From Nitrospinales bacterium (GTDB lineage: Bacteria; Nitrospinota; Nitrospinia; Nitrospinales; VA-1): a stretch of 64,000 nt of DNA. A program made the translations under genes and the position numbers. The stretch lies in the NCBI GenBank assembly GCA_965262115.1, contig OZ253496.1, forward strand, positions 1,632,001 to 1,696,000. Direction: 5' to 3'. The notes beneath the pieces were generated by a model, which was not told the DNA's origin, searched no databases, and saw nothing but the letters and a program-made list of their open reading frames with translations. Every line of letters begins with the position of its first letter. The first letter of the stretch is position 1. This document shows positions 2,198-3,442 of the stretch, one piece after another.

Positions 2198-2248
2198 TGT
2201 GATGTCCTCTTCATTTGTCTTCATGCCCCGAAGCAACTGTGTTAAATG

Positions 2249-3189
2249 TCAAGTGCTGGCAATGAGATTTTCATTCCAGAGTGTTTTTGTTTTGATCATG
2301 GTATTGATGATCGTTAATAACTTTCTCATGCATGCGGTAATGGCAACTTTAAAGGGTTTGCCCTTTTCGATGAGGCGTGTGTAAAAGGTACGAATCACGG
2401 GATTATGCTGCATGGCAGTGACGGCGGCCATGTATAAAGCGGCACGCACATTGGCGCGACCGCCCCGGATACACCGAACTTTCCGCTGTCCCGATTGAGG
2501 GGAGCGAGACCGATAAGGGCGGCGATTTGCTTCTGATTAAGAACTCCAAGTTCCGGAACCCCGGCCAAGAGGTTGACAGCCGGAACGGGACCGGCACCGG
2601 GAACACTTTGTATGATCTGGTCGTGCTCACGCCAGGCAGAACTGTTTTTGATGGTTCTGGAAAGGTCGCCATCGATTTTTCGCAAGCGTTTTTTAAGAGA
2701 TTCGATATGCTCCTTAATGTCTTTACATATCCATTTTGGAGCTTGTTTTAGACGGGTTTTTTCTTTGGTCAGCATCTCGATCAACTGGCGACGGCGTGTC
2801 ACTAGAGCTGAGAGTTCAAGAGATTCTTCGTCTTTGATTTTCCTGACCTCAGGACGTATGGCCTTGGCAAAATGGGCCAGCACAAGAGAATCAATGACAT
2901 CGGTTTTTGCCAGTTTCCCGGTGGCTTTGGCAAAATCACGAACTTGCCGTGGGTTGACCACGGCTACTGGCAGTCGACCCGCAACCAGGGCCGAAGCCAA
3001 CGGGATCTCTAAGCCGCCTGTGGCTTCCAAAACGATCAATGGAGGATTTAAGGCGGATAAACTCTCGACCAAACCAGCAATCCCTTCTTCATTGTTAGCG
3101 GTTTGCCAGGTTTCTTGAGTCATGCTGTCAGCAACATCCAGATGGAGTTTAGAAATATCGATGCCAATAAAATGGGGTTTCTGATTCAT
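2249..3189 (-). pseudogene. IS110 DEDD recombinase, frameshifted near 2470
   Basis: IGIDISK / LEATGG / KTDVIDS DEDD motifs and [10 protein letters not shown] serine motif. The C-terminus (RAALYMAA...KVAITACMRKLL) is in another frame. Confidence 0.92.
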
Positions 3190-3194
3190 AATTT

Positions 3195-3390
3195 GGTCTC
3201 CCAGCCTTGCCGATGCGGGCTCAGTGGCCCAGGCAACTGTTCGGGTTAATCAAAATAGGACACAACAATCTGCGCTTCGGGACGGGCTTAAAAGCCCAAG
3301 GGGTAAACGATCTATTGTGCCCTGAATCAAACCCTGTGAGCCTTGTGGAAAACACAAAACCGGCTTCCCACAGGGCTCACAGGTACAACT
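3195..3390 (-). ncRNA. IS110 bridge RNA (boundaries approximate)
   Basis: 5' hairpin at 3333-3383. Target loop guides TTTACCCCT (3307-3299) and CCCGAAG (3281-3275). Donor loop guides ACAGTTGCC (3240-3232) and GCAAGG (3210-3205). These match the actual target and donor junctions. Confidence 0.88.
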
Positions 3391-3442
3391 ACTACAAATT
3401 CCCCTTATGAACAACATACAAGGGGTACTCGAAGGGTTCCCA

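Follow-up and report, generated by a model that had tools for sequence, protein, structure and literature searches.

How does an IS110 element come to lie within a repeat of about 40 bp that itself interrupts an IS3 element? The question was raised by the initial annotation of a 64,000-nt stretch of a Nitrospinales genome (in the following called the window), which proposed that a bridge RNA is programmed against the hairpin end of a genome-wide 41-bp micro-element. Features of the IS110 element and of the micro-element are given below on the minus strand.

The IS110 element and its IS3 host

The IS110 (IS621-group) element extends from 2234 to 3422 and comprises 1189 bp including one CT core. 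The same ends are observed directly in 23 full-length copies, the intact copies elsewhere in the genome being 1198–1199 bp long. A 233-nt non-coding left end is followed by the transposase gene, which begins at 3189, and by a short right end. The genome contains 21 full copies at 98–100% identity, two full copies at 88%, one 5′-truncated copy and six fragments. Fifteen of the 23 full copies are intact and encode 316 amino acids; six, the window copy among them, have a 10-bp deletion, and two are variants with an early stop. Due to this deletion, an allele that was found again in run X1, the bridge recombinase gene of the window (2249–3189) is frameshifted near 2475 (codon 239).

The recombinase has the domains PF01548 and PF02371, and an intact copy scored 226 bits against NF033542 (cut-off 140). 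The protein aligned to the known structures of IS621 (PDB 8wt6, E-value 6e-30) and ISCro4 (PDB 9t56, E-value 9e-33). Its residues D11, E55, D97, D100 and S235 correspond to D11, E60, D102, D105 and S241 of IS621, which are named as catalytic in the accessible part of PMC11208158. The DEDD RuvC-like domain and the Tnp domain with the catalytic serine are complete in the 15 intact copies. The window copy retains all five residues, is frameshifted after S235 and lacks the end of the Tnp domain.

The right end (2234–2252) carries a −35 box TTGACA (2252–2247) and the left donor ACAGTTG (2240–2234), the left end (3413–3422) the CT core (3422–3421), the right donor TGTAT (3420–3416) and a −10-like box TATGTT (3418–3413). 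Joined, these ends would read TTGACA, 17 nt, TATGTT and thus, by sequence match only, yield the promoter reconstituted across joined ends that is expected of an IS110 member. An empty-site joint from 2230 to 3420, skipping 1189 bases, was present in the contigs of four of eight runs (two studies), and the circle joint was absent from the contigs of the eight runs, which drop rare forms. Membership in the IS1111 group, which has a downstream seekRNA and subterminal inverted repeats, was rejected because the non-coding region lies upstream and only 15 bp follow the gene. Judged from its sequence, 2234–3422 is an IS621-type IS110 element: the resemblance claimed at the outset is matched by the domains, the catalytic residues, the left-end layout, the CT core and the right donor TGTAT.

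The host is an IS3-family element on the plus strand (1858–4336; PF01527, PF00665, NF033516) with orfA from 1923 and orfB from 3440. The micro-element and the IS110 element interrupt it at the orfA/orfB junction, and the same 41-bp insert is present at all 15 IS3 orfA/orfB junctions found. IS3 relatives in five other genomes lack the 41 bp and show no duplication. Such a relative reveals the micro-element as a clean insert and bears out the three-level nesting, IS110 in micro-element in IS3, that had been suggested. About 17 near-identical IS3 copies were found (1858–4336, 25488–26777, 35310–36599 and 14 more places), all with the 41-bp insert, which breaks the orfA-orfB register; orfB has an early stop in 14 of the 17.

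Upstream in the window, a lysine/alanine-rich, exported-looking gene without Pfam match (1240–1860) has its end cut by IS3; genome-wide, its flank stands before four left ends of IS3. Further upstream lies an ADP-ribosylglycohydrolase-family gene (106–1062; PF03747), for which we saw no link to the IS110 element.

Predicted bridge RNA and choice of landing sites

The non-coding left end (3190–3422) folds with a z-score of −3.3, and none of 200 shuffled sequences was as stable. Its fold includes a predicted 5′ stem-loop of the bridge RNA at 3333–3383. A target-binding loop is predicted at 3257–3322 from the consensus fold of 43 homologues and from guide-flank covariation; within it are the left target guide TTTACCCCT (3307–3299) and the right target guide CCCGAAG (3281–3275) with handshake bases at 3274–3273. 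The predicted donor-binding loop (3198–3245) is placed by its IS621-like layout (PMC11208158, accessible part) and by a left donor guide that tracks donor changes in homologues. It contains this 8-nt left donor guide (3240–3233) and a discontinuous right donor guide (3214–3206) with handshake bases at 3205–3204. All four guides are located in the non-coding left end where the initial annotation had put them. As in IS621 (PMC11208158), the right donor guide consists of two pairing bases followed by two flipped bases, a G:T wobble and CAAG, and the handshake bases pair with position 7 on either side, here G in the donor and C in the target. A weak match to Rfam sX15 on the opposite strand (30.5 bits, cut-off 55) was discarded.

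For the consensus fold, the window sequence was combined with 42 of 58 candidate homologues; 16 of the 27 pairs showed compensatory changes. Both target guides are unpaired in this fold and set between stems carrying such changes, and four donor-guide pairs are predicted, none of which changes on both sides. When the RNA was folded alone, part of each left guide paired with its right guide, and three bases per target guide were paired. The idea that the guides occupy internal loops thus stands for the target guides in the consensus fold; in the RNA folded alone it does not, and the donor guides are predicted to be partly paired.

At the element's own junctions, AGTACCC is followed by CT-TGTAT on the left and ACAGTTG by CT-TCGGG on the right, which returns the donor ACAGTTG-CT-TGTAT and the target AGTACCC-CT-TCGGG as first reconstructed. 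The match of the guides to both sequences can be read directly, with two corrections to what they had been thought to specify. On the donor side ACAGTTG-CT was retained and the abbreviated TGY was not, since the discontinuous IS621-type right donor guide reads the whole TGTAT. On the target side TACCC-CT-TCGGG was retained, and left-guide positions 1–2, which do not track the target, were dropped.

This last point comes from homologues. We fetched 160 homologous loci; together with earlier loci, 180 matched the protein. From these, 126 could be parsed and 54 were dropped, the window's own genus among them, yielding 80 distinct guide pairs, in which kin inflate the counts. In 51 of 70 pairs the right guide matched all five flanking bases, and 61 of 70 were within one mismatch; the mean match was 4.51 of 5 (shuffled 1.55, maximum 2.01). 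Positions 3–7 of the left guide matched the flank at frequencies of 0.67–0.94 (72 pairs), positions 1–2 only at 0.17 and 0.35, which is the shuffled level. Because left-guide positions 3–7 and the right guide track the flanks and left-guide positions 1–2 do not, the working address is 5+2+5, or 12 nt, and clearly corresponds here to the first 12 bases of the repeat. The left donor guide likewise follows donor changes. That guide changes alter the target, as had been predicted, is therefore seen in natural variation, guide changes accompanying target changes among homologues. In seven repeat-directed relatives, down to 72% protein identity, left-guide positions 3–7 are constant and the loop-facing base is A, C, G or U.

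Sister IS110 elements of the same order lie in three other small hairpin repeats (L004, L014 and L036; L006, L007, L008 and L016; L010 and L018). Their guides match the flanks where readable (L004, L006, L007 and L036). In a tree of 26 recombinases, L004, aimed at another repeat, nests among the repeat-directed ones with weakly supported nodes (92/88).

Within the genome, every junction position was determined directly. All 26 right junctions read ACAGTTG-CT and then the repeat head, as CT-TCGGG in 23, CT-GCGGG in two and CT-CGGGG in one. The left junctions end in TACCC (22), ACCCC (3) or at a CT that belongs to the left end of the element itself (1), so 25 of 26 fit the hairpin head of the repeat. 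The copies are hence not at unrelated sites, and guide match, junction positions and covariation in homologues agree with the notion of a natural guide aimed at the hairpin end of the micro-element. The exceptional left junction belongs to L034 (G000:C1:2144617–2145978), in which a 166-bp left end directly precedes a full copy, joined at the CT in the target-loop stem. It is a possible product of half-match recombination and resembles the donor-only "half-match" events described in 10.64898/2026.08.31.748434 (accessible part).

How many insertions these junctions represent depends on the origin of the copies. They might stem mainly from recombination, IS3-composite duplication or mis-assembly, so that the specificity is inflated. 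There are 17 distinct left and 15 distinct right flanks, giving about 13–15 independent sites, and a single IS3 half accounts for 10 of the 26 left flanks. In many cases the left and right flanks are mismatched, meaning that the reconstructed targets are partly mosaics. The 3-bp target duplication of IS3 is kept in cis in only two of 14 whole copies, and several copies pair with distant ones. Reciprocal mosaics at G000:C1:1297250 and 1895287 are exchanged at the micro-element tail, the simplest cause being recombination running out of IS110 homology. Recombination between copies most simply explains the flank mosaics as well, and assembly error may contribute. The assembly appears partly chimeric: a stretch of the contig at 10–100 kb (G000:C1:10000–100000, L266) has a low G+C content of 37–43%, simple repeats and a decayed eukaryote-like reverse transcriptase, and is likely foreign DNA joined on. 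Even so, once duplicates were collapsed, the 15 distinct right flanks left were all in repeat heads, genome G015 independently has 17 such junctions, and run contigs add further flanks. Duplication or mis-assembly would lower the count rather than change the conclusion, and we regard it as very unlikely to be the main source of the pattern.

Choice among the heads follows the loop. Every one of the 28 exact 12-nt addresses that stand empty in the genome belongs to a repeat head; the unique empty heads comprise 25 with a TTC loop, 36 with TGC, 24 with TCC and 24 with TAC. For TTC, the main lineage fills about 13 independent heads, by our own count of distinct sites, and leaves 25 empty; for the other loops the numbers are 0 and 84 (p = 5e-8). 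The 88%-identical variant has C for A at the loop-facing base of the right guide and is located in a TGC head; its two copies have one right flank of 229 bp in common and count as a single event. A strict match of guide base and loop is broken by foreign junctions in two cases. L143 (guide U) sits in a TTC head with a mismatch at the loop-facing position, and G016 (guide G) has TTC, TGC and TTG junctions, of which TGC and TTG mismatch the loop-facing base. In G013, guide G in a TTC head fits by wobble. The IS110 address is altered by a base change in three IS3 copies, none of which is occupied.

Guide pairing might be necessary but insufficient, with the recombinase also reading the repeat hairpin or bases beyond the address in a sequence-plus-structure match like that of ISPpu10, an explanation we consider unlikely. 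While 32 non-repeat sites within one mismatch of the address stay unused, so do 118 repeat heads within one mismatch in the case of the main lineage. All 26 right junctions run on into repeat sequence past the 12 nt, but the exact address does not occur outside the repeat, so that this genome cannot separate guide-only from guide-plus-structure recognition. ISPpu10 reportedly has a gate formed by a stem-loop in the target (10.64898/2026.03.19.712850, accessible part); its geometry is different, the 5′ extension of ISPpu10 pairing with the left target, whereas the targets here are two arms of one hairpin.

The micro-element as target

The larger part of the micro-element, 36 of 41 bp, lies at 2198–2233 and comprises the right target, the hairpin 3′ arm, a variable middle and a conserved tail. 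Its first 5 bp, TACCC, which are the working left target, were placed at 3423–3427 by junction comparison. Another IS3 copy has an unoccupied 41-bp micro-element at 35650–35690, a natural empty target. A strict head pattern found 199 heads in the genome and one in a third-order Markov genome. The whole family has about 275 heads, 250 empty triloop heads and 26 occupied ones. Its members are mostly 39–41 bp long and represent 121 distinct sequences; a dispersed family with a hairpin end was thus confirmed, the fixed length of 41 bp was not.

Among 102 genomes of the order, 38 contain the repeat head but only five, all from one genus, a repeat-directed guide or junction; the element thus adapted to the repeat and not the reverse. 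This distribution also bears on the idea that the IS110 element itself made or moved the repeat, as a footprint or non-autonomous derivative, the match being self-recognition. The address is identical to the first 12 bases of the repeat and both have burst in this genome, but in G013 (a single contig, 98% complete) 284 heads stand against one element, and repeat insertions show neither a CT core nor a duplication at their ends. Such an origin is, in our judgement, extremely improbable.

Host repeats other than IS3 also occur filled and empty, and from such clean sites we infer that the repeat is mobile. The suggestion that the IS110 element parasitises another parasite is upheld as far as its position in the micro-element is concerned; the putative parasite status of the repeat comes from these clean filled and empty sites. 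The right flanks of the micro-element show two preferences: position +3 is a pyrimidine in 44 of 49 and position +5 a C in 37 of 49.

Base 16 of the repeat and its last base vary together, and all four Watson-Crick states are seen across genomes. Among the 121 distinct sequences of G000, last base and base 16 are T:A in 72, C:G in 29, A:T in 9, T:G in 6 and other in 5; at 33 loci of other genomes they are T:A in 18, C:G in 6, T:G in 5, G:C in 1 and other in 3, and because repeat copies are kin these numbers do not stand for separate events. An empty host repeat, of which there are 21 occurrences, fixes the A:T class. The next pair is invariant in 112 of 118 repeats and, with the covarying pair, completes an 8-bp hairpin that brings the ends side by side. 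On the strand opposite TACCC this hairpin has one odd pair, G:T, and a GNA loop in 108 of 118, and that strand folds better (mean −5.6 vs −4.2 kcal/mol). GNA triloops are unusually stable in DNA. At head-to-tail junctions of the repeat, 9 of 22 are without the kept pair. These features suggest that the micro-element would move via a single-stranded circular intermediate. The small dispersed repeats of Nostoc, reportedly described by Elhai and colleagues in 2008, may be similar in being very small, many-copy hairpin repeats.

HUH transposases make use of a short guide sequence located at the base of a hairpin. Y1 HUH genes (PF01797) were absent from G000 (94% complete), G013 and G007, and present in G009, which has no heads; only one of 21 Y1 loci had a repeat head nearby. 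A REP/REPIN-RAYT identity of the repeat was rejected, as no cognate repeat-flanked Y1 HUH transposase was found. A Y2 search gave no candidate, its control likewise remaining without a match anywhere. The sole reverse transcriptase, a decayed gene in the contig stretch that looks foreign, was dismissed as mobiliser, and so were small GIY-YIG genes, which are located among other repeats, one with a head nearby. The GIY-YIG genes at G000:C1:2573200–2573540 and 2378900–2379200 lie between palindromic repeats belonging to a family in which the micro-element is found as well. Multi-copy genes of the genome comprised IS110, IS3 and a few low-copy others, with no mobiliser candidate among them. Reading the repeat tail as the beginning of a GxxExxY nuclease gene was rejected, PF13366 having 0 matches in G000, and six tests gave no sign that the variable middle guides the repeat to its own targets (z from −1.7 to 1.2). 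An escape from IS110 as the origin of CT-less hairpins was likewise not supported: such hairpins make up 65 of 154 heads in G000, yet in G010, which yielded no element of this kind, they make up 29 of 33.

Tentatively, and rather against the odds, the target may represent an undescribed class of minimal (~40-nt) single-stranded DNA mobile element. Its ends would pair into the 8-bp GNA-triloop hairpin, and it would excise and insert as a tiny circle by means of a putative enzyme. The IS110 lineage would then be a dedicated hyperparasite, long held on an invariant 12-nt end and cutting the hairpin that the repeat needs, and single changes in the guide would have divided the loop variants among sister lineages.

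Proposed mechanism and comparison with known systems

We conclude, with a probability of about 0.9, that this is an IS621-type IS110 element with a predicted bridge RNA that probably directs every insertion to the hairpin head of the 39–41-bp micro-element. By likeness to IS621, the element ends would join in a circle, where they would form a sigma-70-type promoter with 17-nt spacing that makes the bridge RNA. The DEDD/serine recombinase would act with the donor loop holding the element junction and the target loop holding the 12-nt TACCC-CT-TCGGG, and the crossover would take place at the CT, on the border of hairpin stem and loop. With its frameshift, the window copy would need one of the 15 intact copies to act in trans. 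For the element, the repeat would offer about 50 mostly intergenic landing sites, and the guide base facing the free loop base of the repeat likely decides which loop variant is used. For the micro-element, an insertion would split the hairpin and so immobilise it.

The locus adds a compact 316-aa bridge recombinase with intact natural copies and a natural 7-nt right guide. Natural one-base guide variants, set against one-base target variants, make position-10 specificity, wobble tolerance and the role of the target hairpin testable, and the homologue set indicates that left-guide positions 1–2 have no address role in this branch. The micro-element is the more surprising part: the guide marks the functionally fixed end of an unexplained repeat, and the pairing of its ends provides a concrete, testable model for the movement of 40-bp repeats.

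The following comparisons draw on the accessible parts of the papers cited. With IS621 (PMC11208160, PMC11208158; PDB 8wt6) and ISCro4 (PDB 9t56) the element shares the DEDD and serine recombinase and the CT core. Further features in common with IS621 are a left-end RNA with a 5′ stem-loop, target loop and donor loop (predicted here), the right donor TGTAT, an 8-nt left donor guide, a discontinuous right donor guide and handshake bases. IS621 forms a promoter at its junction and inserts into REPs (PMC11208160); a promoter at the joined ends, putative here, and a dispersed repeat as target are thus likewise common to both. The element differs from IS621 in its distant protein (E-value 6e-30), in donor positions 6–7, which are TG instead of AT with the handshake changed to match, in a natural right target guide of 7 nt instead of 4 with a 5+2+5 working address, and in targeting a 39–41-bp micro-element rather than the E. 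coli REP.

ISPpu9, ISPpu10, ISPa11 and ISRm19 insert into REPs in all copies (PMC1525189). Like these (see also 10.64898/2026.03.19.712850), our element uses one position in a small palindromic repeat, has a 2-bp core and is linked to rearrangements; unlike them, it has its crossover at the stem-loop border, its target halves are the hairpin arms, and no Y1 HUH transposase was found in the genome. In the IS1111 group, ISKpn4 and ISPst6 target attC sites and IS4321 and IS5075 the ends of Tn21 (PMC11187229), which are also cases of an RNA-guided element inside another mobile element; there, the guide is downstream of the gene and inverted repeats are subterminal, in contrast to the IS110 layout seen here.

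The micro-element resembles REPs and REPINs with RAYT (PMC3116915) in its very small size, many copies, hairpin, absence of target duplication and nested or tandem insertions. It differs from them in its single triloop hairpin at one end, its variable middle, its terminal base covarying with base 16, and in that Y1 HUH genes do not track it. The article texts searched held no earlier description for Nitrospina and IS110 or for a GNA-triloop mini-hairpin mobile element; Supplementary Data 2 of PMC11208160, on natural guide-target pairs, may list the element. The targeting of repeats and of mobile elements by IS110s is already published, and what is new here is the covariation between the last base and base 16 of the micro-element.
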